A stretch of DNA of 64,000 nucleotides from Amphiscolops sp. MND2022 (Eukaryota): positions 27,158,001-27,222,000 of the forward strand of contig OZ076409.1 in assembly GCA_964187785.1 (NCBI GenBank), written 5' to 3'. The position numbers and the translations under genes were made by a program. Positions within the stretch are counted from its first letter, which is position 1, and every line of letters begins with the position of its first letter. The notes beneath the pieces were generated by a model that made no database searches, was not told the DNA's origin, and saw nothing but the letters and a program-made list of their open reading frames with translations. This document shows, piece after piece, positions 1 through 48,770 of this stretch.

Positions 1-1957
1 AACAACATGTAACTCCACGAAACGATAAAAACAACCGACCTTATTTCGAATCATGCAACGAAATTATGCGACACAAACATGAAATGATCAATACATGTAA
101 AGTTCAAAGACCTGCCAAATCAATGACGGCACGAAAGCAATTAACAATTCCAAACTACATGCAATACAAATGAGCAACGCACGGAAATATACATGTACCG
201 TTCAAAAATGAATGAGATAATATATGCAATTCACAGCAAAACCATCCGAACCTAGACGAATAAAAATAAAACAAACAAACGAAAATACATGAAGTCTACT
301 AATTTACATGCAAAATATAAGAATTGACGAAACACCTACTAAACTAACAAAGGAGTGAGCACCCCCCAGCAAACATCAGTTTATAACAAGCAAAACACCC
401 CTATCGATAAGCCAAAAACATTCCTTCGTGCTGGCTGGCATTTCTCTGAAAAGAGTGCTGGTTAGTTGAGGCGGGGAGCTCACAACCATATTCGGATGAA
501 GCTTGCTGCGTTGGTTATCCAGCGGCTAGTGGATTCTCAGTTAGTTTTGTAGGGGCTTTGTGACGACAAAGCCCTGTCCAAATGAACGAAAATAAAATCA
601 AAAAACATGAAACTAACACCGAACATATAACGACATGTCAATAATGGGGCAACCCATTTAAAAGAACACATCATCTAACAATCCATACATGCAAATACAA
701 GAAACAGATAGTCTAAAACTGGACACATGCATAACCGTAGATGTCAATCACATTGATTGATCGGACTGACCGTCAAATGGACAAACCCATTTCGACGAAT
801 AATGGCAAACAACCAACCGAAAAAATGACATATAGACTATATATAGCCCGAAACTACGAGATTCCATTTATCTGAAAGGAGCGGAGCAGCTCCACTCACC
901 CAGCTCTGGACTGAAGCCACTAGTACCTTGCACGCCTACAGGCTATCAGTACCACTGCTGAGTGAACTTATTTTCGACCGCCACGCAAGCGGCGGTCACC
1001 AGAAAGCGAACTAAAAATACATGCAATAACGTTCCGAAGTTGACAAATTAGAAACATGACGACGATGATCAAAACACATGTACCATAAAATTCATGCAAA
1101 TTCAAAAACACGACAAATGGTTATAACCGTATAACGCTAAAATACATGAAGAAAACAATCCGAAACACCGCAATATTAATAAAATTTCCTCCGGACATGA
1201 AAAATGCAACCCCCGCTTACGTTATACCCAAATAACATCGAAAACACGCAAAAATCCGTACATTTCAAACGCACGATAAAAAGAAGATGAACTATACAAC
1301 AAAATGAGCAAAAAACTTGCCAAGTCAAACTTGCGATACAAAAACGATGAATTACACCAAAAAACTAGCAAAAATGCAAAAATTCAAACGCAAGATGAAA
1401 AAACGATGAAATACGTAGAAAAACCACATGTAACAACATGCAATATTTCTGACGCACCGAAAGATGTAAAAACGATGACAAAAACAGTTTTCACGACGTC
1501 GCTTGGTCGACCGAGGAAAACGTGATGAAAATGAGATGAAAAATCAAAGATCAAACGCTGACGAGTTACTTACACTACCGCGAGATGTAATAACGATGAA
1601 CACCATAAAAGCGACGCGCGACCGATGATCTATGATACAAAAATACCGAAGACAATGCTTCAAGTGAACTGTTGGACGAACTTGTTGATTTACACGTACT
1701 TAATATCCTCTGTAACTATCTCTAACAACTCAAAAGAAAAACAGCTGTTGGGCACCAAAATAACTAATGTTGTAAACACACTACTACCGATCTTTCCGCC
1801 GTAGCATCTGGATTTGTATCATTCTCACTATGGTCATTACTGTGCTTTCCATTTATTGACCTTTTTCATGGGTCTCCCAACATATGAATAACTACACTAT
1901 AATGTAAATACAACAAATTATATAGCAAAACAATGAACAACATAAACAGTTAATAAG

Positions 1958-4900
1958 TCAGTTTCCAATCTCGGGACTGGCAGCCCGCTCCCCGGTCACA
2001 TCGTAACCAAGACTAGCATATAACTGGAGACGATAATCTTCCCCAGCCACGATACCGACGTCGTCCCACAACATGTCCTCTGTAATCTCTGATAGATCGA
2101 CGAGCCTTCTGTGCGACTCCATCACTTCTTCCATCAGTGGCCCACTGACACTACCGTAACTTCGCACATGATTAGCAGACAAATAACTAGAGATTACTGC
2201 ACATACACAGCTCATGACATCGCTCGGCAGGTGCCCGATCCCTTCGCATATGGTATTGCAAGTGCTCTGCACCACCCCTCCCAGGCAAAAGACAAGTTGT
2301 AACAGACTCTGCGACCCGCGACTGGAACAGAAACGCAACAGATCAACGGCTGAATACTCGGCAATCGCCCCAGCTGGCCTAGGCTCGCACCGAAAAGCCC
2401 TTATGAATTCCAGAAATCCGAGCTCCATTCGATCCTGTTCGACTAAACTGATCCGCCCCATTTCCACAAGTAAACCAGTAAAATTGCGAATTTCCGCCAC
2501 AAGATCAGTTTCCGCCACACAAACCAGTCTGGGTGAACTAAAGACACTTCGCACGAAAGCAAGATCGTCACGAATCCCTGGTAGCAATAATACGTTCTTG
2601 ACGATAGACAATAAGAAATTAGGCACTCGGGACACATCCTCTTCATACACAGCCACATCTTCCGTCAAATTCTCATCTGAGCTGAAACTCGCGATAAGGG
2701 CTTGTAACTTAGTCGCTGACACAACATAACTGTCTACATCCACAAACAACCACCCACGGATATCCAGATCAGTGGGCAGGCTCTCTTCATCAACCAGTAG
2801 AGTCAGCAGGCGTTTCACAAACAATGCACTCTCGATCGCCCAGTAACAACTCCGCAATGATGAAGACCCGAAACTCTTTTCGTACGACGTCACTACTGAA
2901 ATGAAAAACACAACAATTCTATACACAGTAAATAATCGGACTAACCCCCCCCCCGTTCCCTTCCCGAAAAATGCGAATTGATTAAACACTCGAATACGTA
3001 AAGCCAACTACAGAAACTTCCCACCCGGTAAATATACGACATACTAACAAGCACGATAGACCATACTAAGTGCTCGGAGCCTGATTGGGATCCCAAACTC
3101 CACCCTCAAAGTAAGATCCAACGCATCTACTGGCCCGTCTCCCGAAGCGAATCGAACTAGACACAGCACTTCTGCCCAATTGGCACGTAATTCATCGCAC
3201 ACATCAGCAAGAGTCCACACGTAGACTTCCCCGGATAGAATAGCCTAAACAAAACATAACAAGCTCCACATAGATAAAACAAAATATTACAATACAAACT
3301 ACTACCAATATACAAACAACAGAAACAGACAAAGAGTACAACTCATAGTAACACTCAAATAAAAGCGGAAGACTACACCGACCTGCAACAGATGAGGGCA
3401 GCTCAACAACAGAGGATCCCTAACATATCCTTTCAGTCTCTTCTGCAGATGATTCAGCACCACGTGAATATCAGTCCCGCCGAGCGCCCGCCCTCCCACG
3501 TCCACAATTGTCCGACTGATTTCACACAATGACAGCGTCTTCAACTCCAGTGACCCAACGCCAGTGGCGGCTTGGAACAGTCCACCCAGCTGAGGCAACG
3601 CATCGCAACACAGTCCAAGTGGAACAGGTTCTCCAAGCAAACAACACCACATGTTAATCATCCACGTGACAACTCGTTTTTCCCAATCCTCAGACAGACA
3701 AAAACTGAAGACACAGTACTGACTGATCCCTTCTAGAGAACACATTGTGACCGTGCCAGTCACGCGCCCCTGCCCAACAGCCACATGAAAGCTGGTAAAC
3801 CCACAGTTAGACCACAGAGTGATTAGCCTCTTCATCGCGTACGGCCACAAACTCAGTAGAACCACACTCTAAAAACAAACATCAACTTTACTATACATTA
3901 ATTCACGATCCGCTTAAAAATAACCCGACACAATTAATAGTTGAAAATCCCCCCTACACCAGCTTCAAAACTACCTATGGAAAACTACCCACTAAATGTA
4001 TTTTTTTTCCATCTACACGAACCTTCATGAAACAAAAAAAAACAAAAGGAAATACGAATTACCATCACGTCATTCACTTCGCAAGTAACACCGAAAAGAG
4101 AGGCATGTTGCGGCTCTGACGCAACCATCACCTCCCACAAACTCGTTACGCTGGCGAACTGACACCCACGATAGATTGCGTCAATAACCAGGCACACGAA
4201 CAGATGCACGGTCTTTTCACACAATAGATCCTCTTCCTCCTCGTCCCCCCACACAGGTCGTCCAGCTGCTTCCAACTCAAACACCTCCAGTACACTAAAG
4301 GAGGGGCACGTCTCAATGAACGGCACCATTGCACCGCCCAGGCTGCTCCTACACTCCACACTCTCTTCATTACTCATCAATGACCCGTCGCGTCGCCGCA
4401 ACGGTAAATCCCGAAACAAACGAATCAGGCAGTCCAAACGATGGTGACGGAGCCCACGACAATGCTCCATGAAAGTAGTGATACCACGGCTGCCAACATT
4501 GATATCACGCTTGCACAGTAAACATCGAACGAATGATAGCCGCGATTGATGACTTCGTGCATAGCCCAGTGCAAGCCCACAGTATTCATGAGAAAACCAC
4601 CATGACTTGATCACTTTTCGCCCTACAAACAGAAATAATCACATGCCAACACATAGCACATCCACTAAAAACAACCACGTTCCCACAAAATACCAAGATC
4701 ATCTTAAAATAATCTTTAAAAACTGAAAAATGAAAAAACCACCGCAAACTTCCAAAAAGTCACCCGGAGTGATGAAAAAATGATGTAAAATAATGTTTTC
4801 ATCAGGAAATATAAGCGAAAAACGAAGAAAACGAAAAGATGAAAAAGAGATGCATTTTGCACATCACCAGAATGAAAAATGGAAACCTTAAAGAATGAAA

Positions 4901-6733
4901 AACTTGAACGATGGAAAAGAGATAAATAGAACGACTTTGAACCAAAAATTGAGATATTTTAGAGCGAAAACAACTTAACGATGAAAAAGAGATGAAAACT
5001 GAAAAGAAAACACCGACGAATAGCGAAAACCGAAAAGAGAAAATTTTAAAGATGTAAAAGAGATGAAAATTCTAGAAGGACTAGAGAGCGAAAACTAATG
5101 TTCAACGACTTTTGACGATGAGAATGTGATGGAAAAATGGAAAACTGCAGAAAACCATATAGTGAAAATAGAAGAACGATGAAAAATGGATAGAAAAGAA
5201 GGAAAACGTGAAAGATGCTAGTGAAAGCAAAAGCGAAGAAGGAAATGAATGAAAAATCTACTGATCAGATACTTCACCAGTTTAAAGCTGTTTAGTTAAC
5301 CTGGCAGACGGGACGCGATTGGTTCGTCATCACTATCCAGTAGACTGGGTCCCATGGGAGAAGCCACGGTCGACATGAGAGCAGCACTGGGAGAGGCAGA
5401 TTCTCGGTCAGGTTCAGCAGGCAGAAGGATGTCGGACGAGAAGTCACCAGGGACTTCAAGTAGGGTCTCAGCACCGCCGGCGGTACTCACGGAAGCATCA
5501 CCAACTATATCAGTGCCGCTGACTGGAAGGGCAGGAACAGAAGAAGAGGCAACAATGACAGGTTCCTCAACAGGAGGATCATGGAAGGTGGAGGACTCAC
5601 TGACTTCCACAACGGCCTGGACTGCTCGATCAGAGGTATCGACAACGGCATCGATGACTGCATCCACGCAATCGACAACAGCATTCACAGCAGCGTCGAG
5701 AGTGATACGAGCAGGAGGAGGACTACTAGCGGCAAAAGAACTCCTCAGCACTGGCGACAGTACAGACACTGGTGCCTGCCTGACAGGAGAACTTACACTC
5801 CCGAATGACAAGTCCTGAAGGAACGAGGACAAGTCAAGTTGAGGAGGCCCTCCCTGAGTACTAGCATCAATGTTCTCAGCCTGGTGATCACTAGTCCCTA
5901 TTCCAATGGAACAGGTGATGGGCCGAGGCCTCGGCGCGTGAATCGGTGTGGGGCCTGAAAGAAGAAACAGTTACTGGACGACGACGATTAGAGAAGAAAG
6001 AGCGCGTACGCCGCGCGAAGAAAGAAAACCGGAGAAGAATACATCCAAAACTCATCTTCAAAAAATGGGATTTACAGCGAGTCAGTCATGAAGAGCTGTG
6101 AATGTTCATGACACATCCTAAATTCATCTCGAAGGTGAATTACATGGGTAATCGACCGCAAAGGACACTACATGCAGATGAGATGTTTACATCGGAATCA
6201 CATCGGAGTGTTCGGACGATAGCCTAGAGAAGTGAAAAGGAAATTGACAAACTCACTGTACTGCTGGATGCTATCCCGCAGCATGTCCCGCATGTGGCGG
6301 TCATACCACCCGAAGGTGATGCTACCTAGGGAGGCATACCAGGGGTAGTGGTCTGAAACACCATACGAAAAGGAGTCAGCTACTGGACGGAGTAAGGATG
6401 AGATACGAGGGATTCGAAGACTGAACTGAAGAATGGAAGGATAGTACTTACACTGCGGAAGATACGGGACGTTAGGGGCCTGTTCAGTTTGCTGCTCAGG
6501 TTGATACTGAGGCGCGTGAGATGCTGCAGGGATTGGAGCATCTTGAGGCGGAACTGTCTGCAACGTAGTCAGTTCGGAGATTATGCCGACAGAGTGAACG
6601 GAGTCCGCTAAAACCAAGACACGCCTTCAATTCCTAATTATTCCCCGGCCCGTTTGTGAAGAAGAAAAATAGTGCACTTACTTCCTGTGACCTCAGTCTC
6701 TGGTAACGAATAGATGGAGTTGATATCCGACAT
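1958..6733 (-). CDS. Predicted spliced ~1,088-aa protein with a Ser/Pro-rich N-terminus, BED-like zinc finger and degenerate hAT-transposase-like body; probable antisense cargo of an LTR retrotransposon
   Basis: Phase-consistent GT-AG exon chain on the - strand: 6733-6682, 6607-6452, 6382-6257, 5954-5301, 4622-4063, 3868-3383, 3244-3062, 3007-1958 (3267 nt). Motif CLLCKRDINVGSRGITTFMEHCRGLRH. The 6257->5954 and 5301->4622 joins are less certain, so this could be 2-3 genes. Confidence 0.6.
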
Positions 6734-7860
6734 CGCGAAGAATTGCAAAACAATCTGAAAAGAATGGAAGACGGTGAAAGAAGGAAAGAAATCGAAGAAT
6801 CCAAGAACAGAGAATTTGATCAGTAATTAAATGGCCTGATCAACCATAATTACAGAAGAACAAGTTCAATAGAAGATTTCAAAGAGCGCGACGCAGCTTG
6901 AATGCCATGTTAATCAAATACTTGAATTCAGAAGATGAAAAATCGATGAAAAACTCTCCGATTTCAAATACTGACATCACTTTTCTTCCCAGTACAACCA
7001 ACTCAAGCTTTCTCTGAGAATGGATCGTCCTCTCCTAGGACTTGACAAAAAAACTTCAAGTATTTGATTTGTTGACAGCTGCCAGTCTCAGATCAATACC
7101 GAAGAAGTTGAGCGGAAACGCGCAAAGGAAATCGTGGCGATTTCAAACTGACTTAAATGGAGGATGATTTATGGATGAGAATGCTGCTGACAACCGGTTG
7201 TAGTTTCCTTCAGTTATAAATTCAGTCTCAGCCAATCAGATCGAGCAACAGTTGCTATGGCGACGAATTCATCTCTTTCTCTTTCACTCAAAAGTCGAGC
7301 AGCGGAAGTAACTTTTGATAGTTGCTATGGCAACGATTCATCTCCTTTCATCGCGAGTAAACAAGCAACGGCGCCAGCCATTCCGCTAAACAGCATCAGT
7401 GTCTCGCTGAGCAAACAATTCATCGTTCATTCATCCCTGACTCGCTGCCAATTTGTCAGTGAAGCTAATCGAATTGTTTACTCAGTGTAGGCGTTTTGGA
7501 GGGAAACTCTTCTCCGAGAAATCAGCTTCTACCGAAAATAACCAGCCGAAACTCCCGTCAAAAGCATGACAACCAATAAAATGCAGATCAGCGGACACTC
7601 GATGGACCAAGAATTAGAGTTGCCGCGTCGAAAATTTTAACCGAAATCACCCAGGATGATGCCAGAAAAGACGATTACCGAAGGTCCTCTTCTCAGAGAA
7701 GCTCTCACAGGACAGAACAAACGAAGGACATGCCAATTCAGAACTAACGAAGGCCATTTTCTCCCCAACCAAACGAAGGACCAGTCGAAGCCAACGCCGA
7801 GACAACCATCCTCTGCACATTTGGCCCCTGCACTCTCAGTCCAAATCCCGCCCCGGGGAG

Positions 7861-10032
7861 TGTCATGCCAGCATGATGGAAATATAATCTACTAAATATT
7901 TGTAATGTAAATATTATGTCTTATGTACTTAGATATGGGCAATATGATGTCATATAATAAGAGCCATGGTTGTGAGCAACCCTACGTTACTTGTACCTTA
8001 ATCCCTACCCCCCCTGAGTTTGAGCTATATATATTTATTTAATACTGAGCGCTCTAGTTCCGGTGTCCGCACAAATGATCTTGCCAATAGCTTTAATGTG
8101 CTATCTTATTCAATATTGGTTTGTCACGATAAGGGAGAGAAGTTTTCCGGTCAGACTGGACCGAGAGATGTAGAAATAATGGAATATGTAACTTCTACTA
8201 GCTCCCTCGCCTCAGGACTTGTAGTCGTGAAGATTTTCAGAAAAGTTCATCACTAATCCATCAGCGGACTTAGTGATCCTTTAACTTCACCTACTAGTGA
8301 AATCACGGTGCTATGTTATCAAGGTTCATCGCAATCACATCGCCAAGATTGCGGGTGAACAAAATTTGGGACATTTATTTGATTTCATTTAGTGATCCAT
8401 CAGCGGATCTCACGGGACTTTAAAATACATGAAAACCATCTTATACTCATCGTCGTTTTGTGAATTTTAACCTTCAATGTGCTTCTCATTTCTTAAAAGA
8501 GCATAACACATCTATATTTCATCGTCCTGACTAGTAACTACAAGGAATGAGAAAGTACATCCTTAATTCATCCTAAAAAAGAGTGAAGTGCTGGATATCT
8601 GTTTTTTTAGATTAACTCATCACTAGTTCATCGTAAATTCATCGCTAGTTCGACTTGCGTTAGAATTAGCCGAAATTTCAGTTGAGTTCATCCTAAACCC
8701 ATCGTAGGAATTTCATTCATTAGATTTTGCTGTTTTATTGAATGTATTCATCCTAAAGTCATCATATATTTGTCTTCACTGCAGAATTAGCTGTTTCACC
8801 TGCTTTGTTGGCTGAATTCATCCTGAATTCATCGCCAATTTCACTAGTGCTGGAAATTAGTTATTTTCGAGGAGAGTTCATCCTTTTATCATCGTCAGTT
8901 CATATCGTGTTGATTTTCGAGCTAAAAGACCACCATTCATCGCATTTTCATCCAGAGCTAAACTAGACTTGAAAATCAGCAAATATTCTGACGAATTCAT
9001 CGCGTTTCCATCTTTGGTTTTGAAGTATTGATCTTAATGCTAGAATTAGTTGGAAAACATCGTTTTCTCATCCTGTGATGCAGTTTACTCTGTTTTGACT
9101 TGAAATTAGTACATTATTGAATGATTTGAGTTGCTATAGAAACCATGACACTGTGTGCAGGCAATTGCGACATTGTAAAGTGATGATTAGTCATAATTAG
9201 CATATGTAGATGTACCATGTGGTTTGGCCAACTTGCGGCAGTTCACAACACCGGTCACGTGACTTACCAATTAGCACCAACTGGCAATAGCCAACAAGAG
9301 TCGGCTGGTAAGAGATTTAGCGTCTTACCAGCCTGAAAAGACACGTGAACTGCTGTATTTTGGACCGCCATTAGAGATTACTCAGACCGAAATTGCGATT
9401 AGCTACTGTCCAGTTGGACGAATTACGACAGATTTGAACTAGAAAAACATATCTCTTATTCATCGTAAAACGCTACCTTCACAACTCTGAGTAATTTCTT
9501 GATTGATACCTGTCCGATGAAATTTGGATGAACTCTACTTAATCCTCGTTAACTATTCTCATTCTATACTAGTATCCTTGTCTTACTGTAAAACTCATCG
9601 CATTTACATCTCAAGTTCAGAAATAGTGAATTTGAGTTCGAATAAAGGCACAAAATAGTAAAATACATCGAAAAATCATCCAGAATCCAGTCTTCACTCA
9701 TAATTCCTTTTCTCTCACCTCTATGAACCCAGATCTAGGCACCGAACTCAGAAGCGGAAGAGTTATTAGTTCCTCATCAGAAACACACGTTCAAACGGAC
9801 CCAGACATGGCTCAGTCTTCTGCCAATGATTCTGATAGCAACGAGGTTTCCGATATCTCGTCTCAGTTATCTGAAATAAAAGAGAGCTATGAGAGAAAGA
9901 TAAACGAATTACAGAATGAGTTCAGTCAACTGAAGGACTTAATGATGGCTGTCATAAGTAAGACAGACACCGAAAACCGACAGTCAACCTCGAAAGGTCC
10001 TTCAAAGCCGACCCACACGGTTGGGCTCGACA
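7861..10032 (+). mobile_element. Long (~2.17 kb) LTR, probably the 3' LTR of a giant Ty3/Gypsy-like element extending left beyond the window
   Basis: Begins TGTCATGCC right after the purine run GGGGAG (7855-7860, PPT-like) and ends GGGCTCGACA (imperfect terminal inverted repeat TGTC..GACA). TATA-like run ~8027, AATAAA ~9642. Followed by a (CT)n microsatellite. Confidence 0.6.
9723..10032 (+). pseudogene. gag-like N-terminal ORF inside the LTR, truncated at the LTR end
   Basis: MNPDLGTELRSGR followed by a coiled-coil (EIKESYERKINELQNEFSQLKDLM). The coding character stops exactly at the terminal GACA; the rest of the ORF is CT microsatellite. Confidence 0.5.
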
Positions 10033-10666
10033 CTCTCTCTCTCTCTCTCCTCCCTCTCTTGTTCGCGAGTTTGTTGGAAATTTAACAAGCATGATCAGTC
10101 ATCGATAGTTGCTTATGCTAATGCCTACTCAGCTTGACTTTATTGTTTCATTTTCCGGTTGATTCATTGTAAGAATCATTTTAAAAACCGTTAGTTTTTC
10201 ATTAGTCATTAATGGATTCAGATTCGATCTCTACTGTCAATTAAATCAATGAATCATCAATCGAAACGATCTCAAAAATTGATTCATCTTTTTTATTTCT
10301 TACGACTTGTGAAATATAAACAGCACTTGTACGGAAACCAGAAGTGCTAAATTGCTTTTTGTAAAAGTTATTTAGTCAATTGATCGATCGATTCGTTTCA
10401 AGTCATTTTAAAAGAAGACTCGAAAAATCAATTTTCTAATTGAGTTAACGTCGAAACTAGTAATTGGTTGAAATTTCCTTGCGTCAATTTGCCTGAATCA
10501 TCTAATGAATGCTAATAGCTTTCTAATAGCTTCTACATTTTCCTCTGAAACGTAGCGAATCATCATTTGCTCTTGCTTCGTTTCCACTGATCAGTTGCTT
10601 TTCTGCGAGAAAAAAAGTAGTTTTGTCAACTGAAGAAACCTCAGTTTCTCAACAGCGCCATAAAAC

Positions 10667-21835: not shown

Positions 21836-22730
21836 GGTACTCCTGACTAAGTGTGATCCCAAGCGATTTCTCCTTACTAAGTGTGGTCCCTTTAATGTAA
21901 GTGTGGTCATGTAACGTTAGCATATTTGTTGTATGGCTCGGTCGCTTCGCTCCCTTCGCCAAGTAGCAACATTGAGGCATGGCCATATGGCACGTCGCTC
22001 CGCTCCTGCGTTTAGGGCACTAGGGGTATGTGAACATATCTGACTATGTTATAAAAATATTTTGTTTTTGAATTATTTGGGACTCAATTGTCGCGGGACT
22101 CAATTGTCGACCCCCTAAATTTAATTTATTTTGGGACTCAATTTGTATATCTGTATAATCGTTTGCATAGATTCACTCTCGAAAACTGTTTAAAAAATGA
22201 GACCCCGGATCTATCTAGCTGTCTCACTTGAGTCAATATTAAATTGACAAAACTGAGGTGACTGAAGCCAGATTTTGTCTAAGAAAATCTGGTACTCCTG
22301 ACTAAGTGTGGTCCCAAGCAATTTCTGCTTACTAAGTGTTGTCCTTATGATGTAAGTGTGGTCCCTGCATATTTTGTCGGAATAATAATTATAACGTAGT
22401 CAGCTATATTCACATACCCCTAGTGCCCTAAATGCAGGAGCGAAGCGAAGCGGAGCGACGTGCCATATGGCCATGCCTCAATGTTGCTACTTGGCGAAGG
22501 GAGCGAAGCGACCGAGCCATACAACAAATATGCTAACGTCTTCAAATCAACTTCCATACATATTGGCTGTAACCGCACTAAAAGCTAGTAAATTGAATTA
22601 TGCTGTTTTGAACTACATGTAATATTTGCTTTACGTTGGCTATTCTAAATTTGCTAGGGACCACACTTAGTCAGGAGTTTTCAGGCCGGCTGCATAAATT
22701 TTGTAGGGACCACACTTAGTCAGGAGTACC
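21836..22730. mobile_element. Merlin-like non-autonomous DNA transposon (composite)
   Basis: TIR GGTACTCCTGACTAAGTGTG..CACACTTAGTCAGGAGTACC with an exact 8-bp TSD ATTTCTTC (21828-35 and 22731-38). Extra TIR copies at 22291 and ~22657. GG-starting TIRs with 8-bp TSDs are typical of Merlin. Confidence 0.75.
21914..22539. repeat. ~140-bp inverted repeat pair nested in the Merlin-like element
   Basis: 21914-~22053 is the reverse complement of ~22389-22539 (GCATATTTGTTGTATGGCTCGGTCGCTTCGC...). Confidence 0.85.
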
Positions 22731-22857
22731 ATTTCTTCGTTGTACCTATAATTCACAATTCCAAAAACTTTTTTTTTCAATTTGGAGGGGATCGAGGTTC
22801 GCTGATTGAAATTAGGACGGTTTTTACGCCAGACATGACGGTGTATACACCGTATAC

Positions 22858-22981
22858 ACTGCATACGATGTGAAAAGGTTCTGCCAGATAGTGGGCCCAT
22901 TTTCAGCAGTTTGCTTATATATAAGCATACTGCTGAAAATGGGCCCACTAACTGGCAGAACCTTTTCACATCGTATGCAGT
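22858..22981. repeat. 124-bp near-perfect loopless palindrome
   Basis: ACTGCATACGATGTG...TGCTTATA|TATAAGCA...CACATCGTATGCAGT, centre 22919/22920, two mismatched pairs. Confidence 0.9.
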
Positions 22982-25677: not shown

Positions 25678-28600
25678 TGTTCTATTTCTTGGTTCGAGTA
25701 AGAAAACAAAAGGGTTTTATTTAAAATGTCTCTTTAACATAAAGTACTGTCAAGCGATATTTCTTTAACTAAGATATCTGTAACAAATGATATAGTCTCT
25801 GTATGAAATGAGAGTACGGTGTTTACATATATGTAAAAACATAATCTTGGTAGCTCTAGGAAAAGATCTAAGTTTGATTGACAATGCCACCGAAAGATCG
25901 GTCCGGTATATGTACCGTATAACATTTCCTCCCTCCTGGGTCTTCTTCGGTTTCTTATTTTGATGTTCCCGGTGTTGGAGTTTTCTCGCGGATGAAGTCT
26001 GCGGGCTTCGTTAGTGGTTTTGGCGTCTCCTTTCTGTTGTTCCATTTTCCGGCTGTAACACTTGTAACAATTAATTTTTGATTTACACACAAAAATTTTT
26101 TGTATATGTAATCCCCCCGTATCTATTCGGTTGTCTACTTTCAATGTTGGACCGTCTTATTTTTTCATTTTCGGTTGTTTTACTATTTGTTTGTTTCTCA
26201 CCCGGATTTATCTCACCGTCTCTAGGTTCAGTTCATCTTCGGAGGATGTTGTGATTGGTTGGTAGCGGCCGTCTTGTTCAGAAGTGTCGTGATTTTCAAA
26301 GTCACTTTCTTCGTCTTCTATTTCGCCTTCCTTGCTTTCAGAGTCTGATTCGGTTCGCTGATGTTGTACAATTTTCAGCTTTCCGTTTAATACATCTCTT
26401 AGAATCTCGTTCCATTGAATGTATTTGCCATCGACTCCCCTGAGACAGTGTCGGTTTTTTGGAGTGATGGTATCTCCGATCTTCGGCGCTGTCTCTCTTT
26501 CTTTCTGAAATACAATTGGATCCAAAATAAATTTTCGGTGAATTATTTTTCCGGTATTAGTGGTTACGGTGTGTTCTGTGCCGTCCACTGCGGTTTGTAG
26601 GTGTTTGTGAAATCTTGCTTCTAATGATTTTTATTGTGTTTTTTTTCGAAAAATTGGAAGGGGTATCTACCAACCGAATTATTCTTTTTTGGTGATTTTT
26701 CGGCAAGTGTTTTTTTTCCGTTTTTGTTCGGGCCGTAAGGAGGTGATTAGATACTTCTCTTTCACCATTTCTGGTCACATAGATCGGTATCTTTGGGCGG
26801 TTGTTTGTTAACACAGGTAATTCTGACCAATTTGAAAGGAAAGATTTTCCGTCCTTTATTATATTTGTTAATTCGGTTCGTGGTTTTCGACCGTGATGTA
26901 ATTCAAACTGTGTGGTCTTTAGTCTCGTATGAATTGTCAACCGCATAACATTCAATGCTCTAATTACGCATTCGGTTAAACACGTGTTATCTTCCAAGTT
27001 TGCGATAATTAAGTTCTTTAGTGTTTGTATTGCGCGTTCTACTGCTCCCGTACCGGTATGCATTCTCGGTGTGCTATATTCAATCTCAATATTTTTCGTG
27101 TTACAGAATTCCTTGTGTTATTTGTCCCCCCCTTTGTCCGTTTTTATTTTCTCCGGTAATCCGTATAAATTGAAATTTTGTTTCAAGAAGTTTAATGCTT
27201 TCTTGGTTCGCGATGATTTGCAAATTTTGCAGTTGGCCGTTTACTGAATCTATCTATTGCGATTGATATTTGGTATTCTCCGTTTAATTTTTTGTTGTTT
27301 AATTACCGGAGAAATCTATTAGAAGTTCTTGTCCCGGTTCCGTCAATGTTTTTAGTTTTCCATACTCAGTTTTTGGTAATTGGTATTTTAAATTCTTGTC
27401 CGATGACATGCAGGCCACACACTTTTCTGTTTTGCCTTCTATCTCTTTTTGCATCTTCGGCAACCAAAATATTTTGGCCTCTGCTGTCAATTTGGTAGCT
27501 CCGGCATGTCCGAAATGTAGAGTGTCCAATATTTCTTCCGTAGTTCGGTCGGTACTACTATCCGGTCGTCGTTAAATGTAAGCCCCCATTTGTTGTTCAA
27601 CTTTTCGAAAATTGTTCGGTATTGATCCGGGACCGTGTTTTTATCGCCTCGTAGCTTTGCATCCCGTACCCGGCTGAGTTCGGCATCCGTTGTTGATTTG
27701 GCGATCAGTTTTTTAGATCGAGCATAAAGTTGAATTCAGACTTTTCGATCGTGTCTTCGGTGTTCTTTTTCTCACCGGTGACTTTTCTAATGATCTGGTT
27801 TATTTGTATAAACTGAACTTCCTTTCTTTCCTTCCGTGTTGTATGCCTTTAGATTAACGATGGGAAAGTTATCACCCCGGATTACTTGGCTTTCACCTTC
27901 GCTCTCTTGTTCGGTGTCTTCGATAGTTTCCGGTTTTTGGGCTTCTTGCTATTCTTCCACTCGCTCTTCGAGGGGTTGATATGCCCCGCCGAATCAATAT
28001 GCCCTTGATAGCAAATCACCGTCGATCTCCGCAATTTCTTCGCGACTTCTCTTAATTGGTCTTGAAGGTACCCAGATCTGTCTTTCCGCGTTCATGTCAA
28101 ACTTTCGGCGTATTGTTCCGGGCCGGGAGATTTCTAGTCGTCTTTCTACGAGCCGGAGGGTTTCTGGGCTTTTTCTTCGTCTTCTTATTATCTCCATAAT
28201 TTCAGCAGTTGCGCCCCAGTGAGAATAGTCTCTGTACATTTCGCTCTTAAATAGAGGTAATTCTTTTGATGATGTATTTTGAATCGAATTTAAATTCATG
28301 TTTCGGGTTGAGCTTTCCGTTTTGGCTTTTTGTCGGCGTTTGTTCGATGCGCTTTTTGTTTGTTCGTAGTTTTCATTCACTTCTCGGTTTTTCTCGAAAG
28401 TTCTGTTTCGATGTGATTGGTTGTTTAAATTCTCTTCGGTTGTTTTAGTACTTTTCGGTGCGTTTTGTGATTGGTCGACGAATAGTGGTCCCTATTTTGC
28501 GTTTAAATCGGTTTGTTCTGAGAGAATATTAATTATGTATTGCTCGTAGTATACGTCTTCGCTCGCTGCTTTCTCTACCGGATTTCTACTAAGAAAGTCG

Positions 28601-31547
28601 GTGAATTTTATATTGTTTCCTGCGATGGGTTGGATAGCAATATCAAAGTGCGCGAGTCGATCTAACCATCTAGTTAGTCTTGCGCTGTATTGTCTTTTGC
28701 ACCGATTTCTTTTAATCAAAGGTTCAAGTGCCTGGTGATCGGATATAAAAAGATTTTCTTTCCGTATAGATAAAATAGGAATTTCTCTAGCCCCAAACAA
28801 CTGCGAGTATTTCAATTCTAATTCTCCGATTGAGTAATTCTTTTCGCTATTGTTTAGGTATCTGCTTCCGAATGCTATCGGTTTCATTTCTCCATCCGAC
28901 TGTTTTTGCCATAAAGTTATTCCAAGTCCGGTTTTACTGGCGTCGGTTGTAACTATGTTTTCTCTGTCCTTGGTGTAATGGGTTAAACTTTATGTGTTCT
29001 TCGGTTAACATTTCTTTTATTTTATTGAAGTCCTTGTCTTGTTCTTTCCCCCAGTTCCATACCGAGTCCTTTTTTAGGAGTCTTCGGAGTTTTTCTGTTT
29101 TTTCCGATAATCTCGGTAAGAACTTTGCAAGGTATTGTATTGCACAGAGGAATGACTTCAGTTGGTTTTGGTATTCTGGATGTTTCAAATCCAGAATTGC
29201 TTTCACTTTTTCTTTGTTCGGTTTACTTCCCGTCTCATCAATTTCATGTCCGAGCCACTTTGTTTTATTTAGGAAGTATTCGAATTTTCTTTCACTTGCT
29301 CGGTATCCGGCGTCTTCTAAACTCTTTAATACATCGAATAGTTTGTTTTGGTGTTCGTTTCGGTCGCCTCTAGTTACTACGATCATATCGTCAAGCCATG
29401 CCGGTGTGGAATTTTCTAGAGTTCGGTCAATTGTTTCTTGGAATATTGCTGGGATATCGGCAAGACCGTAGAATTCCTTTTTGAATCGATAATATCCGCT
29501 GAACTTTCCTTCGGTTATTGCAAATACACATTGTCGGCTTGTTTCTTTTGATAATTTGATCTGACTATATGCATAGTCGAGATCAATTTTCGACATCTCT
29601 AATTCTTTCGTCCGGTCTCTTGTGATTTCTACCGAAATTTGGTTTGATAGTTTTTCCAGGTTCGGCATGTGTGGTTGGTTTTTTATACAGCTGTCGTTCA
29701 GTTTTCTCGAATCTAATGCAATTTTTACCGACTTGTCGTTCTTTACCCTTTGAAACAAAGCTCTTCATCTACGTGTTTTACTTTCTCCATGTGTCCGGTT
29801 TTTAATAATATCTCCAATTCTCTCCCGACGTCTTCTTGTAGATGTAGTGGGATCGGTTTTGCTTTTTGTTTCACCGGATAGTGTCCCGGTTTTAATTGGA
29901 TGTTGATCTCGGTGTCTTTTATCGTGGTGTTATTTTTAAATAGGTCCGGGAATTTTTCAATTATTCGTTTCTTTTCCAACTGGTTACTGTCCTTTACTCG
30001 GATGATTCCAACTGTTAGTTTGATATTTTTATCCAGTCCATTCCGAGTAACGGTGTTATGTCGTTTCTTTCGGTAATCAAGATTAGCATTTTTTGTTTGT
30101 TGTTCTCGTATTCGATATCAGCCGGTATCTGTCCCCGGAATTTCACTTCATTTTTATTCACGTCTTGGTATTGGTGTTTGACTTTCTGTATCTCGGTTCG
30201 CTCCATTATATTCTCGTCTACAGGCATTATTGAAATTGGTGATCCGGTATCCACTATGAATTCTTTTTCGATTCCGTTTACTTTCACTATTGTTGTTAGA
30301 TATTTGTTTCTGTCGGTAATTCTATTCATTTTTTCGATTCTGTGTATACTCATCTCTGATTCGTCTGTTTCTCCTCCAATTGCATCTAATTCTTCTTCGG
30401 TAACATTACGTACTTTGCGTTTGTAGTTTTCTCTTTGTTTGCAAACGCGTGCGAAATATCCCTTCTTCCCGCAGTTATTGCAAAATTTTCCAATGCCGGC
30501 CATTTGTGAGTGGGATTCCAGTTCGGTGCGTTACAGAATTTACAAGGTTTCTCGTTTGTAAATTTATTCCTTGGTCTTGTATCGTATCTTTCCATTCTTT
30601 GTATCGGTTCTTCTTTTATTAATTTCTCTCGGCTTGATATCAGTGCTTCCAGTATACTATTTTTCCGATTTTTTCCTTCATAAGTATTTTGTTTGATCAT
30701 TCAAATTGTTTTCTTCAGTTCAAGCGTTTTCTCTTTCATCAATTTGTCTCGGAGTTTTGTATCCGTAATTGCGGTCATGAATTTTGAAACTAATGTGTCT
30801 TCGGTCGTTACTCCTTCGAATGCGCATTCTGTTTCTATTTCTTTGAGTTTCCGCCAGAAATATTCCGGTGTTTCGGATGCGGTTTGTCGTGTCCAGAAGA
30901 ATTCCCCGCGGTTATGATAAGTGTTCCGTTTCGGTAAGAAATATTCGTTGAATAATCGGATAAGGTCTTTTACCGATATTTTGTCGGGTTCTGTTTTGTA
31001 CTCCGCTCATTTGATATAGTGCTTTGGGTCCGATTCCCCATATGAAATCTTCTTGAATTTCATCTTCTTTTCCGGACCAACCGGTTTGTGTTATTCCAGC
31101 TTCCCGTATTAATTCGGTGACGTCCATTTTGTGTTTTCTCTTGGTATATTGCCGAAATCTTTCAAGCCATTGTTTCGGAGTGAACATTCTTTTCCTGTCT
31201 GCTGTGGCTTCGAAATTCGGTACTTCGATGTTGCTTTCTTCTGTCGTTTTCTTTGTCGTAATTAGAATTTCTAGTGTAGTTTAGATTGCTGACTGCGCCA
31301 TGTTCTATTTCTTGGTTTGAGTAAGAAAACAAAAGGGTTTTATTTAAAATCTCTCTTTAACATAAAGTATTGGCAAGCGATCTTTCTTTAACTAGGCTAT
31401 CGGTAACAAATGATATAGTCTCTGTATGAAATGAGAGTACGGTGTTTACATATATGTATAAACATAATCTTGGTAGCTCTAAGAAAAGATCTAAGTTTGA
31501 TTGACAATGTCACCGAAAGATCGGTCCGGTGTATGTACCGTATAACA
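25678..31547 (-). mobile_element. Full-length decayed Ty3/Gypsy LTR retrotransposon
   Basis: 247-bp TG..CA LTRs (25678-25924 and 31301-31547; ~12 differences by eye), 5-bp TSD GTATG, PBS TGGCGCAGTCAGCA (tRNA-Ser-like), PPT AGGAGGGAGGAAA. Domain order gag-PR-RT-RH-IN. Confidence 0.95.
26200..31187 (-). pseudogene. Frameshifted gag-pol (zinc knuckle, aspartic protease, RT, RNase H, integrase)
   Basis: CNNCGKKGYFARVC; FIVDTGS; WLDD (YXDD-like); SDHQAL and IAFGSR; HFGHAG..CVAC; GAVERAIQTLK. Split over many ORFs. Confidence 0.9.
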
Positions 31548-33353: not shown

Positions 33354-34856
33354 TTACAATGAATTAATCTGAAGAACCGTTCGAATTACATCTAGCCCCA
33401 AGTCGACATCTTCCGCTGTTATACACATAGGGGGTTTCACCCGCAAGACATTCCCAAATGGACCCCCTCGGCCCACTAGGAGCCCCAAATCTTTCAAATC
33501 TTGTAAGAACTTCACAGCTTTTCTTTCTTCCAAAGGTTTCTTGCTCTCTTTGTTTTCTACAAGCTCAAGCCCAATCATCAAACCTTTCCCTCGAACATCG
33601 CCCACCATTTCAAACTCTTCTCTCAACTGACAGAGTCCTTGAATTAATCTGGTTCCAACTTCGTCGCAGTTTTGTTGCAAATTCTCATCTTCCATAATGT
33701 TCAGAACTTCTTCACCAACCGCACATGCAAGAGGGTTGCCTCCGAAAGTGTTAAAATAAGCACCCGTCAGATGTGACGCAACTTCAGGAGTTGTAACTAC
33801 TGCCGCTAATGGAAACCCATTACCGATACCTTTGGCCGTTACAACAATATCGGGAGTCACACCGTGCGACTGAAAGCCCCAGAAATGACTGCCAAGTCTT
33901 CCAAATCCTGTTTGTACTTCGTCAGATATGCAAACACCTCCACATTCTCTCGTGATTTTGTATGCTTCGTTTATAAATCCTCTTGGATATTGCACAGTAC
34001 CACCGACACCTTGTATTCCCTCAGCAACAAAAGCGGCCAAGTTTTTGGAGGTCGTGAAATTAACGGTGTCCAAAAACTCTTGAACATACTTCCCAGCTGC
34101 CGAACACTTCCCGTTTTTACACTCACAGCGTCTGCCAAGAACCTGTGAGATGCTGTCACGACAACTGGACCCACCGTAAGGACCTTGGTACGGGTCTACC
34201 AGTGTCCCGAGATGGAGCATTCCATGCCTTTTAGTGACGTTGAAATGCCAACCAGGTCCGCTGCTAAGACCCATGGTACCGATGCCTGTTCCGTGGTACC
34301 CGTTTCGCAGGGCCACAATCTCATGATTTCCCGTTGAAATTCTTGCAAGTAACATAGCCAAGTCGTTTGCTTCAGATCCGGAATTCACAAAATGAGCCAC
34401 GCTCAAGTTTTTTGGCAACTTTGAAGTCAGTTTTTTAGCATAGGAGGAAATTTGTGGGTGTGTGTAGATAGCTGCTGTGTGCCATAAAGTTTCAGATTGT
34501 TCTTGCAAAACCTTGACTAGTCTTGGATGACAATGACCAACTGAAACAGTTGCGATCCCAGCAAAAAAATCTAGGTACCTTTTTCCATTGTGATCAAATA
34601 TCCATTGTTTACTGGCCGTTGAAACCATCAAGGGCTCTTTGTAATAGGGTTCCAGAGAACGATTCAAATGAACTTTCTTCAGTTTCAGCAATTCTTCGTA
34701 ACTGAACTTTGATCTACTAAGAAAAGATTCCGAAGCTTGACTGGAACTGACGTTTGCTTGAGCAATCGCTGAAAACGCGGCTTTAGGAATCCATGATGTG
34801 GTTGTTTTAGGAAACCAAACTGTCTTAGGGGCTTGAGAAAGAATGACTCTCAGCAT
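33354..34856 (-). CDS. AGXT2: Alanine-glyoxylate aminotransferase 2-like (class III PLP aminotransferase), paralogue A, probably mitochondrial
   Basis: 500-aa intronless ORF with YLDFFAGIATVSVGHCHP, NSGSEANDLA, ISDEVQTGFGR and TAKGIGNG (PLP Lys). Arg/Ser-rich, acid-free N-terminus. Likely 5'UTR intron 35132-34885. Confidence 0.92.
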   Translation of the reverse strand: MLRVILSQAPKTVWFPKTTTSWIPKAAFSAIAQANVSSSQASESFLSRSKFSYEELLKLKKVHLNRSLEPYYKEPLMVSTASKQWIFDHNGKRYLDFFAGIATVSVGHCHPRLVKVLQEQSETLWHTAAIYTHPQISSYAKKLTSKLPKNLSVAHFVNSGSEANDLAMLLARISTGNHEIVALRNGYHGTGIGTMGLSSGPGWHFNVTKRHGMLHLGTLVDPYQGPYGGSSCRDSISQVLGRRCECKNGKCSAAGKYVQEFLDTVNFTTSKNLAAFVAEGIQGVGGTVQYPRGFINEAYKITRECGGVCISDEVQTGFGRLGSHFWGFQSHGVTPDIVVTAKGIGNGFPLAAVVTTPEVASHLTGAYFNTFGGNPLACAVGEEVLNIMEDENLQQNCDEVGTRLIQGLCQLREEFEMVGDVRGKGLMIGLELVENKESKKPLEERKAVKFLQDLKDLGLLVGRGGPFGNVLRVKPPMCITAEDVDLGLDVIRTVLQINSL

Positions 34857-36090
34857 GGTTGGTTATCTTTTAATGTCAACTGGGCTGAAAAAAAGGTTTT
34901 TGATAATATTTGAAAACTTGGATGATTGAAATTGTCTTGAAGAAAATGCAAATCTGAAAAAAAATCTGATATCGAGATTGTTTGATTATAGATTCTTGTG
35001 TTTTAGAGTTTAAACTATTACTCTCATAAACCGATCAATATTTCCCATTAATTGTTTTTCATGTAATGTTTGCTGTAATTTGTTAATTCTGAAAACTGCG
35101 ATTGGTGTTAATATTTATTCAAACCAACTTACCAAGTTAAGCTAGTGACCTCTCAAATCGGAATGGCCGTAGAAACTATCTCTTCGGTGTAGAAAGTTGT
35201 CACGTGTAGAAACTAGTCAACTTTGTTCACAATGTGCCAAGCCCCCAAATGTAACACAGTAAGGTATTAGGTTTGCATTTCATGCCGAGTTTCATAGAGA
35301 CCTGCAACATGCAAACACAAAGTTTTGGTCGTTTAGATGGAGTTTCGGCCATAATCAGCTGGCCGTTTATTCTACGCTTTTGTCCCAATTATGACAACAA
35401 AATTGTTACAACAAAGATGATAAAACTTGAAGTTTAACATCTATCAAATTTCCATCCTCCGCATTTCATTGAGATTTTTCATTTTCCACTCATATATCTG
35501 AGAAAGATCAAGAGCAATTTTTTAAATTGGGTATAAAAAGAATTATTTGAGAAGCATTTAAAAATTAATTATCGATTAGGAACACAGGAATAAAAAGTTC
35601 ATCCTCAGCCGGCATTTTTCCTAGATTCGTATCATACGTATTTTGAAAAAATCAAAACTTTTTATCAGAAAAGCAGCTCAAAATTTAAGAAAAAACATTT
35701 GATCAATAAAATGTTTTTAATTTCAATCTTGAGTTGGAGCTTGTTTGAACGATGAAAGCTTACTATTCCGAATTTGAGTCAAATTGCTCTCTCGTTTTTT
35801 TTTCAATCCTTGTGGAAAAGACCAAACGAATTGTGTTCTTAGCCTTAGATCAGATAACTGCCACAAAGACACAGAAAGTCCTTCTTTAAGTTTGTTCTGC
35901 TTTATTTCGAAAACTTTGCCATTTCATTTTCTTTGCCGTGCTTCCTTTGCTTTTTTGATGCTTTCAATTTTAAAAAACTTTCTCAACTGAAAGGGCCCTT
36001 TAATTTTTTTCTGGTACTGTGATACTTTCGAATTTTGTTTACTGCAAGATTTCGACGAACAACTCTACCGGAAGAACTTTAAAGTCGTTT

Positions 36091-41409: not shown

Positions 41410-42909
41410 TCACGACATATTGTTTGTTAAAACATCTCGAATTACATCAAGTGCGAAATCGGCATCTGCTGCTGTTATACACATAGGGGGCTTTACTCTT
41501 AAAACATTCCCATAAGGACCGCCTCTGCCCAAAAGCAAACCCTTCTCTTTGGCTTCTTCTAGAATTTTCAAAACTGTTTCCACCTGCAGCGGTTTTTTAC
41601 TGACTTTGTCTTGCACGAGTTCGATTCCGATCATGAACCCTTTTCCTCGTACGTCTCCTAGGATTTCTAACTCTTCTCTCAGCACGCAAAGACCTTCCAG
41701 TATCTTTGTTCCAATGACGTGACAGTTCTGCTGTAAATTTTCATCTTCCATTATGTTCAAAACCTCCTCACCCACAGCAGATGCCAAAGGGTTGCCTCCG
41801 AAAGTGTTGAAGTAGGCGCCTGTTAAATGAGAAGCAACTTCAGGAGTTGTGACAACAGCAGCCAATGGGAACCCGTTTCCGATTCCTTTTGCCATAACCA
41901 CAATATCGGGGACCACGTCATGAGACTCAAATGCCCAAAAGTGGGTCCCAAGTCTACCGAACCCAGTTTGGACTTCATCCGAAATGCAAACACCTCCACA
42001 TTCGCGGGTCAATCGGTATGCCTCTTTCACAAAGCCCTTGGGAAACTGAACGGTGCCTCCGACGCCTTGAATTCCTTCGTTTATGAACCCTGCTAGGTGT
42101 TTGGAGGTTGTGAAACTGATAGTATCTGAAACTTCTTGCGCATATTTTTCACTAGCCAGACATTGCCCAGATTGGCAGTTACAATCTCTGCCTATGACTT
42201 GGGCTACGCTGTCACGGCATTTTGACCCTCCGTAAGGACCCCGGTATGGGTCAACCAATGTACCTACGTGAAGTACTTGCTGTCGTTTTGGGACATTGAA
42301 GTGCCAATTAGGGACGTTGGTCAAACTCATGGTGCCAATGCCTACTCCGTGGTATGCATTCCTCAGAGTTAGAATCTCAGAGTTACCAGTTGAGATTCTT
42401 GCAAGTAACATCGCCAGGTCATTAGCTTCCGATCCAGAGTTAACAAAATGGGCCACACTCAAAGACTTTGGAAATTTGGATGTGAGTTTTTTGGCGTATG
42501 AAGATATTTGTGGATGGGTGTATATAGCCGCAGTGTGCCATAAAGTTTGTGCCTGATCTTTGAGAACTTTGACTAGTCTTGGATGACAATGACCAACTGA
42601 TACAGTTACAATCCCACCATAAAAATCCAGGTACCGCTTGCCAGCGTGATCAAAAATCCACTGCATGCTTGCTGAGGATACCATGAGAGGGTCTTTGTAG
42701 TAGGGTTTCATAGCTCGGTTAAGATGCTCATTTTTTAACTTCAAAAGTTCCTCATAACTCAATTTAGATTGGTTGAAAGATTTGGGAGCAGGGCCTGGAG
42801 GGAATTGAGCATGAATTGTGGCTGATAGAGAAAAAGTGGATCTGGGGATGAGAGAAGTTAGGGAATGCTGGCTACACATGAAAGCCGAGGAAGCACTAAG
42901 TCGTAACAT
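41410..42909 (-). CDS. AGXT2: Alanine-glyoxylate aminotransferase 2-like, paralogue B, probably mitochondrial
   Basis: 499 aa from the first ATG (MLRLSASS); the track ORF starts at a non-ATG codon upstream of a splice acceptor at 42958. Same class III motifs (MAKGIGNG). Likely 5'UTR intron 43632-42958. Confidence 0.92.
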   Translation of the reverse strand: MLRLSASSAFMCSQHSLTSLIPRSTFSLSATIHAQFPPGPAPKSFNQSKLSYEELLKLKNEHLNRAMKPYYKDPLMVSSASMQWIFDHAGKRYLDFYGGIVTVSVGHCHPRLVKVLKDQAQTLWHTAAIYTHPQISSYAKKLTSKFPKSLSVAHFVNSGSEANDLAMLLARISTGNSEILTLRNAYHGVGIGTMSLTNVPNWHFNVPKRQQVLHVGTLVDPYRGPYGGSKCRDSVAQVIGRDCNCQSGQCLASEKYAQEVSDTISFTTSKHLAGFINEGIQGVGGTVQFPKGFVKEAYRLTRECGGVCISDEVQTGFGRLGTHFWAFESHDVVPDIVVMAKGIGNGFPLAAVVTTPEVASHLTGAYFNTFGGNPLASAVGEEVLNIMEDENLQQNCHVIGTKILEGLCVLREELEILGDVRGKGFMIGIELVQDKVSKKPLQVETVLKILEEAKEKGLLLGRGGPYGNVLRVKPPMCITAADADFALDVIRDVLTNNMS

Positions 42910-43199
42910 GATTATTGTCAAGCTGCAATTTGTGGGTACGATGGATGCTCCACTGACCTGAGAGAAGGAATGAATCAAAACATACTTTGGTTTTTACACT
43001 TTCTTAAAGTTTTGGAATGGTCAGAAATGTGCCCGACAAATGTTCAGACAACAGAATGTATGCGTTCCACTGTTTGAACAGAGTTTGTTTACGCTCCCAG
43101 TAGTTAGGATGCGCGCATCCTTAGAAGACAGCCGTTGGTTTTATGCCTGCCGAAGTCTAGATATTTTTGTTAACAAACCTTGACGTTTGCTACATTTTG

Positions 43200-46300: not shown

Positions 46301-47580
46301 TCTGTTTTTTTAAAGAAGTCGGGAACGCTGACTCATCTATTGTTTTTTAAAAGTTTTCGCCATGTAAAGGTTAAATACATGAGAACAGCATTTGAGAATT
46401 GCATTGCTGTTACCAACAGGTCCACAAACTTTTTAAAATTTTTATATCACTTTCATGACTTCTTAATGTTTCGTGTTAGAGATCACCATTGGATTTTGTT
46501 TTGTCGTGATTTTGTTGAAGGACTTCGTTTGTAGTAACAAAAAACCAAGATCTGTGTAGTCACTAGCATTTGGGTTATTTTTGTGATTGACTTCAAACGT
46601 CTCTAAATTGTTCTGAACTTAAACTGTTACCAAAGTTATCGAGAATGTGATGACGTTGCATACCTTTTTTGGTGTATTGTCACGGTTGTTCATTGCATTT
46701 TCAACTTGATTTGAGATCTAGTTTGAAGAGATTTCTTCTATATGTGATATCATGCAGATATCTTGACCTTCAAAACTATGAACCTAGACAGAGAGCATAC
46801 TATTGTTGTTAAACATAAAACTCTAATTACTGTCAATTTGAGTTTACTACATTTTGTGTTGTACAATAGAGTATTGACCATTGTACTTGAGATTGATACT
46901 ATAGATTAGTTGCTAAAGGAGATACGAATTTATCGTCTTAGATAAAGAACCTTTTTACCGTAATAGACCGAGATTACAACATGGCGCAGTAGCAAGATTT
47001 ACTTTTATCCGTAAATCCAATTTTAACCGACCACATTTTTTTATCACCAGCAAAGCGATTCACACATTCCACGATGGTTTCAGTAATGAAGAAAAACTGA
47101 CTTACAGCATTACAATCAATTAACATTTTATTAATTTTTTGATCTGGAATAAAAAAATAGGAGTTGTCGCGATTTATTTTCACTAACGTCTTCTTTGAAA
47201 TTTTCTTGAATTTCTCTGATTTTTCATCTGGTGTTTTTAAATTGACAGAAAAAATAATAACTAATTCTTGTTTTTATTGTTTTATTGAAAGTCTTTGTTC
47301 GAGACGAAATAATCAATACAAGTTTTAGATTTAAAACTCACTCTTTTAGGTTGAGATTTGCGAAACTGAAAAACAAATGCAGCCAAAAAAAGTATCATTT
47401 TAAAAGTTATCTATGCTGTCTTGTATGTATGTATGCTACATAGTATGGTGTCTATGTATGCCTCAAATACGATGATTGTAGTTTTTGTACAATTTTGGAT
47501 GTTTGTTTCAGCAAAAAAGTCAATTAGCTACTCAGCATACGCTCAAAAAAAATTCCAATGTTTTTTCCTCAGAAAAGGTA

Positions 47581-48133: not shown

Positions 48134-48233
48134 AAAAGGGCTGGAAGTGTTACGTCTTTAATCTTTAACAGCTTTTTGTTCAGCGCATTCATATGAAAAT
48201 GTGCCCGACTATTTTAAACTTGTGACTAGTTTA

Positions 48234-48521: not shown

Positions 48522-48770
48522 AAAAACTTTCGTAACAACGTTGAATGTATGCGCATGATTCATCTTTCAGTAGCGTTCTTGTACTCGCCGGAAGTTTGCT
48601 CAGGCAGCTAGTAAGTTATAATTGGCGCTTCCCTTCCAGATTTTCTGATATTTAAGCTTCCAAAAATGTTTTTCAAGCCGAAAAATCTGTCTTTGGGTTT
48701 TTCGGCACTGTACGAATTTTTCCAAATTTGGACGGTTTTTGATTTTTCCATTGAAAGAAAGCGTTCGCGA

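Follow-up and report, generated by a model that had tools for sequence, protein, structure and literature searches.

The window examined here is a stretch of 64,000 nucleotides from Amphiscolops sp. MND2022 (contig OZ076409.1; G000:C1:27158001-27222000 of a 1.07-Gb genome). Our data suggest that its 5' part is the 3' half of an intact, recent Ty3/Gypsy insertion, which carries a conserved eight-exon gene in antisense orientation. The gene likely derives from a dead hAT transposase and probably encodes a DNA-binding regulator that keeps the element's own long terminal repeat (LTR) promoter active; as a whole we give this reading an even chance of being correct. Copy counts are lower bounds throughout, and loci were hand-picked to span identity bands.

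The antisense gene is carried by a young Ty3/Gypsy family

A first-pass annotation of the window had described an LTR of about 2.2 kb with TGTC..GACA ends, preceded by GGGGAG and by 7.8 kb without pol domains, and had proposed looking leftwards for a 5' LTR, gag-pol and a CTCTC duplication. The LTR and its short polypurine tract (PPT) are as described (Table 1), and positions 1-7860 contain no pol domain; the pol stop lies 665 bp to the left of the window. Leftward extension recovered everything that had been proposed. The 5' LTR (G000:C1:27148877-27151049, 16,984 bp leftward) is 2,173 bp long and differs from the 3' LTR by 5 substitutions and 1 gap, and a primer binding site (PBS) TGGTGACAGGAG directly follows it. 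The CTCTC target site duplication (TSD) is present on both flanks, though the target is a (CT)n run and the duplication is therefore weak on its own. The element totals 19,156 bp with an internal region of 14.8 kb, which is under the 20-kb bar of PMC6431247, and the term "giant" used in the annotation is better replaced by "large".

The gag frame encodes 501 aa with two CCHC knuckles and begins inside the LTR, whose last 310 nt are the first 104 gag codons. Because the frame crosses the LTR end and the PBS (window 9723-10032; L011:2164-2473), each 3' LTR holds these ~104 codons reading into flanking DNA. The pol frame encodes 1,703 aa in the -1 frame at GGGTTTT, and Pfam places protease, reverse transcriptase (RT), RNase H and integrase within it in Gypsy order. 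The element thus has paired TG...CA LTRs, a short TSD, gag followed by these pol domains, a PBS and a PPT, as a Ty3/Gypsy element should. From the pol stop to the 3' LTR there are 8,525 bp, in which no env-like sense open reading frame (ORF) was found; the longest sense frame is 180 aa and overlaps exon 8 of the antisense gene.

The retrotransposon family is young and largely intact. When 40 LTR matches were scored, 34 formed 17 pairs, each separated by 0-6 substitutions. The PBS TGGTGACAGGAG and the PPT GGGGAG are present in all 17 paired elements, the full pol frame is kept in 14, and the TSD is a perfect 5 bp in 16, the 17th agreeing over 4 bp. A solo LTR, which would have undone the linkage to the gene, was ruled out by this pairing; five of the other six matches adjoin a PPT or PBS and one is interrupted by a gap. 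The gene is likewise multicopy rather than single-copy. A tRNA-like 3' end complementary to the PBS has 1,009 matches in the genome compared with 1 for a control, and no full tRNA gene was called in the 4 loci inspected. Judging from the first 100 matches listed, most of the 1,009 appear to lie in a long tandem array (G000:C8:35587000-35635000 and beyond) with units of ~236-296 bp.

An eight-exon gene between pol and the 3' LTR

By alignment of diverged copies the antisense gene runs from 6733 down to 1958 in eight exons, with a coding sequence of 3,138 nt encoding 1,045 aa and no internal stop. Donors and acceptors fall at homologous positions and phases down to ~43% protein identity. A placing script, which required only an AG and a GT in the expected phase within 24 nt, located all eight exons in 48 of 56 loci. 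Since this script is permissive, the constancy of exon length is the stronger evidence: length differences are a multiple of 3 in 137 of 158 exon comparisons and in 72 of 271 intron comparisons (6 truncated or unplaceable loci were omitted, and other loci were skipped where an exon was unplaced). Of 17 elements selected solely on LTR similarity, 15 have an antisense frame without stops, and in the other 2 it is broken or truncated. No intronless copy was seen among the scored matches, whose longest open frames are 314-424 aa. Upstream of the coding region a conserved acceptor at 6754 and a branch-point-like TACTGAT near 6820 indicate an additional intron in the 5' untranslated region. Initial splice candidates (acceptor 6553, donor 3067) were dropped when the sites proved not to be conserved across copies. 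The comparison between copies thus agrees with the first-pass prediction that the eight-exon GT-AG gene is real and phase-consistent. Standard ORF-based annotation would overlook multi-intron antisense genes of this kind.

Table 1. Features of the element and its antisense gene within the window
Feature	Position	Strand	Description
Non-coding spacer, pol to antisense stop	1-1957	+	A-rich; [CG]GATGAA arrays, CATG-core words
Exon 8	2895-1958	-	938 nt, ends in stop; predicted all-helical; allele-variable
Exon 7	3244-3049	-	196 nt; donor GTTAGT invariant in 8 aligned copies
Exon 6	3868-3383	-	486 nt; predicted helix-b1-b2-b3-helix-b4 RNase-H-like core, without conserved Asp
Exon 5	4622-4063	-	560 nt; BED-like zinc finger C-x2-C...H-x4-H
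Intron 4	5300-4623	-	678 nt
Exon 4	5954-5301	-	654 nt; S/P/A-rich low-complexity linker, allele-variable
Exon 3	6352-6257	-	96 nt; 32-aa W/Y-rich segment, nearly invariant
Exon 2	6607-6452	-	156 nt
Exon 1	6733-6682 coding (feature 6682-6754)	-	ATG at 6733
Putative promoter core of antisense gene	7232-7334	-	two X-box-like 14-mers and a CCAAT box
Short polypurine tract	7855-7860	+	GGGGAG; adjoins 3' LTR
3' LTR	7861-10032	+	2,172 bp, TGTC...GACA ends
Target site duplication	10033-10037	+	CTCTC, within CT microsatellite

The gene is linked to gag-pol across sister families

The annotation had placed the gene in a Gypsy-like family as an accessory gene between pol and the 3' LTR, and the co-occurrence of its copies with LTR and gag-pol supports this. 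Homologues 57-85% identical lie antisense to gag-pol with paired LTRs in all 10 loci. At a further 10 loci the gag piece of the LTR is found upstream in 9 and pol downstream in 7, and at another 20 the PPT/LTR is upstream in every case and the integrase tail downstream in 18. One remote match (P0162) led to at least 150 additional copies, with complete elements in 8 of the 10 fetched. These distant elements have RT 77-80% identical in five copies aligned over most of the domain, form a sister clade in a quick tree, and have introns in corresponding positions around the exon that encodes the finger. Elements with RT 87-92% identical contain a third type of the gene at 6 of 7 loci. As it is linked to gag-pol across sister families, the antisense gene is, on this distribution, old within the Gypsy clade.

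Several loci depart from this arrangement. The seventh third-type locus (G000:C6:65036000-65051300, L195-L197) consists of three partial copies in tandem that are 99% identical, and the 40 kb fetched contain neither gag nor pol. At L141 (with L199-L200) and L144 (with L201-L202) a second, divergent accessory gene lies downstream of the first with no pol in the next 20 kb; these may be non-autonomous or recombinant.

Old alleles are exchanged on a homogenised backbone

Nonsynonymous and synonymous differences per site (pN and pS) were counted by the method of Nei and Gojobori. Between the window copy and six copies of the same allele pN/pS is 0.09-0.14, close to the 0.03-0.10 of pol; it exceeds 1 in 2 of 12 close pairs, which rest on few differences. 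By these counts the antisense gene is under purifying selection. Between alleles pS is ~0.78, which is saturated, and pN is 0.20-0.38, whereas synonymous sites in pol of the same elements differ by only ~4-8%. Among elements 98-100% identical in pol we found six versions of exons 5-8 with 58-66% DNA identity. Along the cassette identity falls at ~1300-1800, the left edge of the swapped segment, rises inside intron 4, falls over exon 4 and rises again at ~5950. The middle of intron 4 is 82-91% identical between otherwise diverged alleles and is likely, from this profile, a crossover zone.

Greedy clustering at 88% over 56 hand-picked loci gave 17, 19, 20 and 19 alleles for exons 1-2, 4, 5 and 8. 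The alleles of exons 5 and 8 stay linked, those of exons 1-2 and of exon 4 are recombined with that pair, and exons 1-2 are swapped independently of exons 4-8. With alleles saturated, pol near-identical and exon blocks recombining, the pattern is that of old alleles shuffled as cassettes on a homogenised backbone. The cassettes probably move by template switching at conserved blocks. The diversity may be kept by selection, or divergence may merely block recombination inside the cassette. Exon 3 has a mean pN of 0.04 and a pS of 0.48. Its peptide stays near-constant while its neighbours diverge, and may be both an interaction motif and a crossover block.

A likely origin from a hAT transposase

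A BED finger match in exon 5 (E 0.0016, 18.8 bits, below the 20.6 cut-off) was found in 8 of 15 alleles, and within the finger the Cys pair is invariant and the His nearly so. In the predicted RNase-H-like core no conserved Asp is present in strand 1 or after strand 4 across 26 copies, and the position of the catalytic Glu could not be located, so that no conserved DDE triad is seen. When folds were compared Hermes ranked first of 48,161, though with a weak score. The hAT dimerisation domain PF05699 gave no Pfam or hhalign match, and the corresponding part of the model has a predicted confidence (pLDDT) below 50. Exon 8 gave no clear match in fold searches and 0 matches to longer proteins. The exon 6 profile matched 42 proteins of 53-252 aa and the finger profile 47, all unnamed, and sequence searches of the PDB returned nothing below E 0.8. 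Profile comparison with this genome's own hAT ORFs was negative, a weak negative because the alignments were shallow (7 rows; 23 and 7 rows); hAT dimerisation domains were matched at least 150 times in the genome. No terminal inverted repeats surround the gene among the 25 longest inverted repeats of at least 30 nt; shorter repeats were not searched. Finger, core and fold ranking together suggest that the antisense gene likely descends from a catalytically dead hAT-type transposase.

A putative promoter and repeated non-coding words

Two 14-mers, GTTGCCATAGCAAC at 7321-7334 and GTCGCCATAGCAAC at 7251-7264, fit the RFX X-box consensus of PMC4168999, and a CCAAT box (7232-7239) adjoins them. In the near clade 52 of 53 loci have this pattern upstream of the ATG, and in the distant clade 7 of 10 have it upstream of the gene; it was not found in the third gene type. 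None of 1,000 shuffles produced the pattern, which was defined after the sites had been seen, and it has no other occurrence in the element or in window 10100-64000. The genome contains one RFX domain match. The first-pass annotation had placed a promoter near the LTR; such a promoter is probable from the sequence, within the 1.1 kb that separate the ATG from the PPT and not in the LTR. That the gene has its own promoter there, with RFX/NF-Y-like sites in the near clade, seems to us somewhat favoured, and such sites would suggest activity in ciliated cells or in the male germ line.

The unique 3' region (U3) of the LTR contains 14 TTCATC[CG] words against 0.38 expected, and the spacer contains 11 in the opposite orientation against 1.0 expected. 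The distant clade lacks these words, which are no more than candidate binding sites. Unlike the GATGAA words, CATG-core words (ACATGT, CATGCA, TACATG) are enriched in the spacers of both the near and the distant clade (window 1-1957; spacers of L153-L169).

A model for the antisense gene and its alternatives

We think it probable that an intron-bearing hAT element entered an ancestral Gypsy backwards, between pol and the PPT, and then lost its transposon ends and catalytic residues. As is established for retroelements, introns survive retrotransposition when the packaged sense RNA contains them in antisense, where they are not spliced, and are copied with it intact. The gene would then be transcribed from the PPT-proximal promoter and spliced. 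By analogy with Spm TnpA and VANC the protein may recognise the repeated short words of the LTR and the spacer, and so activate or de-silence the element in trans, a proposal we put a little short of even. Alleles would be exchanged by template switching between co-packaged RNAs at the spacer, intron 4, exon 3 and the promoter. A fuller version, in which the clade domesticated a hAT transposase, introns included, as a backward accessory gene under an RFX-type promoter and balancing selection keeps ancient, cassette-shuffled alleles as an allele-specific arms-race module, we regard as doubtful.

The same hAT origin would serve an integration helper, which would bind chromatin or the ends of the cDNA and tether the pre-integration complex or bring about its import. 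A transposase-like body binding DNA ends would suit such a helper, the U3 motif arrays are close to the end of the cDNA, and PMC7264820 proposes nuclear import for antisense ORFs; however, the 17 TSDs share no sequence, the integrase is complete with its own C-terminal domain, and a promoter of its own would suggest that the gene functions away from the particle, which makes a helper unlikely. There is a similarly small chance that the protein acts as a brake or competition factor. As a dominant-negative or allele-specific repressor it would hold down copy number, keep out related elements or block hAT transposons. Selection would then favour rare alleles and preserve many old versions, such as those seen on the homogenised backbone, and hAT domains are abundant in the genome. 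Such a brake sits poorly with a family that is expanding (LTR pairs differ by 0-6 substitutions) and with the absence of any sequence link to the sampled hAT families. Deep allele diversity and modular swapping could also reflect a module for germ-line drive or of the poison-antidote kind, each allele recognising only itself, and RFX-like sites could drive its expression in sperm development (RFX2 is reported to act in spermiogenesis). We consider this very unlikely: no toxin-like domain, clear membrane segment (highest 19-residue hydropathy 1.6) or second isoform was identified, and locus-specific drive is difficult when each allele has dozens of dispersed copies.

The remaining alternatives concern origin. 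The gene could be a genuine accessory gene captured from the host, with a BED-like finger on an unrelated fold. The negative profile comparisons, the weak fold score and the lack of a named homologue in three protein collections all weigh against a hAT origin here. Nevertheless the order of finger, linker, RNase-H-like core and helical tail agrees with hAT (an order also seen in one alignment), Hermes is the first-ranked fold and no single-copy, host-like homologue is present among the loci fetched; host capture is accordingly rather improbable. Stops or frameshifts in some copies might suggest a nested transposon or passenger decaying neutrally, yet purifying selection, conserved splice sites and in-frame indels over a saturated synonymous distance refute this, and we leave it practically no weight. 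Descent from a hAT transposase is the origin we prefer. Young intact copies and natural allele swaps on a near-constant backbone make the function of the gene directly testable.

Other features of the window

A second, small Gypsy-type element (25678-31547, minus strand; 5.9 kb) has 247-bp LTRs that are 95% identical, a broken RT and a PBS starting TGGCGCAG; it has no space for an accessory gene and almost no GATGAA words. On the minus strand, 33354-34862 and 41410-42993 each contain a class III aminotransferase ORF without introns (502 and 527 aa from stop to stop). The two are 70% alike over 300 nt, their best NCBIfam model being PRK06148, below cut-off. Clusters of inverted and direct repeats at 21836-22981 and 47575-51197 resemble non-autonomous DNA transposons.

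Comparison with known systems

In plant Ty3/Gypsy elements antisense ORFs occupy the same place, after pol and ahead of the 3' LTR (maize Grande gene23, rice RIRE2 and Retand TRP28/PF04195; PMC7264820, PMC11963269). Grande gene23 is transcribed from an upstream promoter of its own and its product is nuclear; a regulatory role is proposed. These sources call the origin of the plant ORFs unknown and find a nested transposon without support. In contrast, seven introns interrupt the coding region of the gene described here, which combines a BED-like finger and a likely transposase core and exists in many alleles that can be swapped; it shows no TRP28, as PF04195 gave no Pfam match on exons 4-8 at E up to 1. 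The region from pol to the 3' LTR is 8.5 kb compared with 2.9-6.6 kb in Retand. What sets it apart from the Grande and Retand ORFs is the introns, the likely transposase origin and the allele library. In the literature searched, which left most subscription journals, repeat databases and supplements outside its scope, we found no report of a multi-intron antisense gene of likely transposase origin with an allele library in an LTR element.

Ogre and Burro likewise combine long LTRs with extra coding capacity, and with 19.2 kb the present element falls inside the 16-25 kb known for Ogre; in Burro most of the extra domains belong to one giant gag-pol polyprotein with an env-like region, which is not the case here (PMC6431247). 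The word "antisense" does not occur in that review. In a brown alga an antisense accessory gene lies in a DNA transposon. The hbz gene of human T-cell leukaemia virus type 1 is spliced. It is a regulatory gene that lies, as here, antisense in the 3' portion of its LTR retroelement (PMC11963269, PMC7264820), but it is short and driven from the 3' LTR, whereas the gene here encodes 1,045 aa and has a probable internal promoter.

hAT transposases (Hermes, PDB 8edg) and the host-domesticated ZBED/SLEEPER genes appear to have in common with our gene a BED-like finger followed by a predicted RNase-H-like core. Our gene differs in having no conserved catalytic Asp, no detectable dimerisation-domain match and no terminal inverted repeats seen, and would have been domesticated by a mobile element and not by a host. 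Spm TnpA, the dead-DDE domesticates (bioRxiv 10.64898/2026.08.24.746577) and VANC (PMC5735166) pair, as our element may do, an element-encoded, probably non-catalytic DNA-binding protein with repeated non-coding words. TnpA and VANC serve DNA transposons, whereas the carrier here is a retrotransposon and its binding and activation are proposed by analogy only; "retrotransposon" is absent from the main text of bioRxiv 10.64898/2026.08.24.746577. PMC7264820 calls the origin and function of antisense ORFs unknown and asks for a search for spliced antisense transcripts, and the present family supplies a multi-intron case with a candidate origin. If the hAT origin is true, the route from dead transposase to regulator, known for host genes and DNA transposons, also crosses transposon classes.
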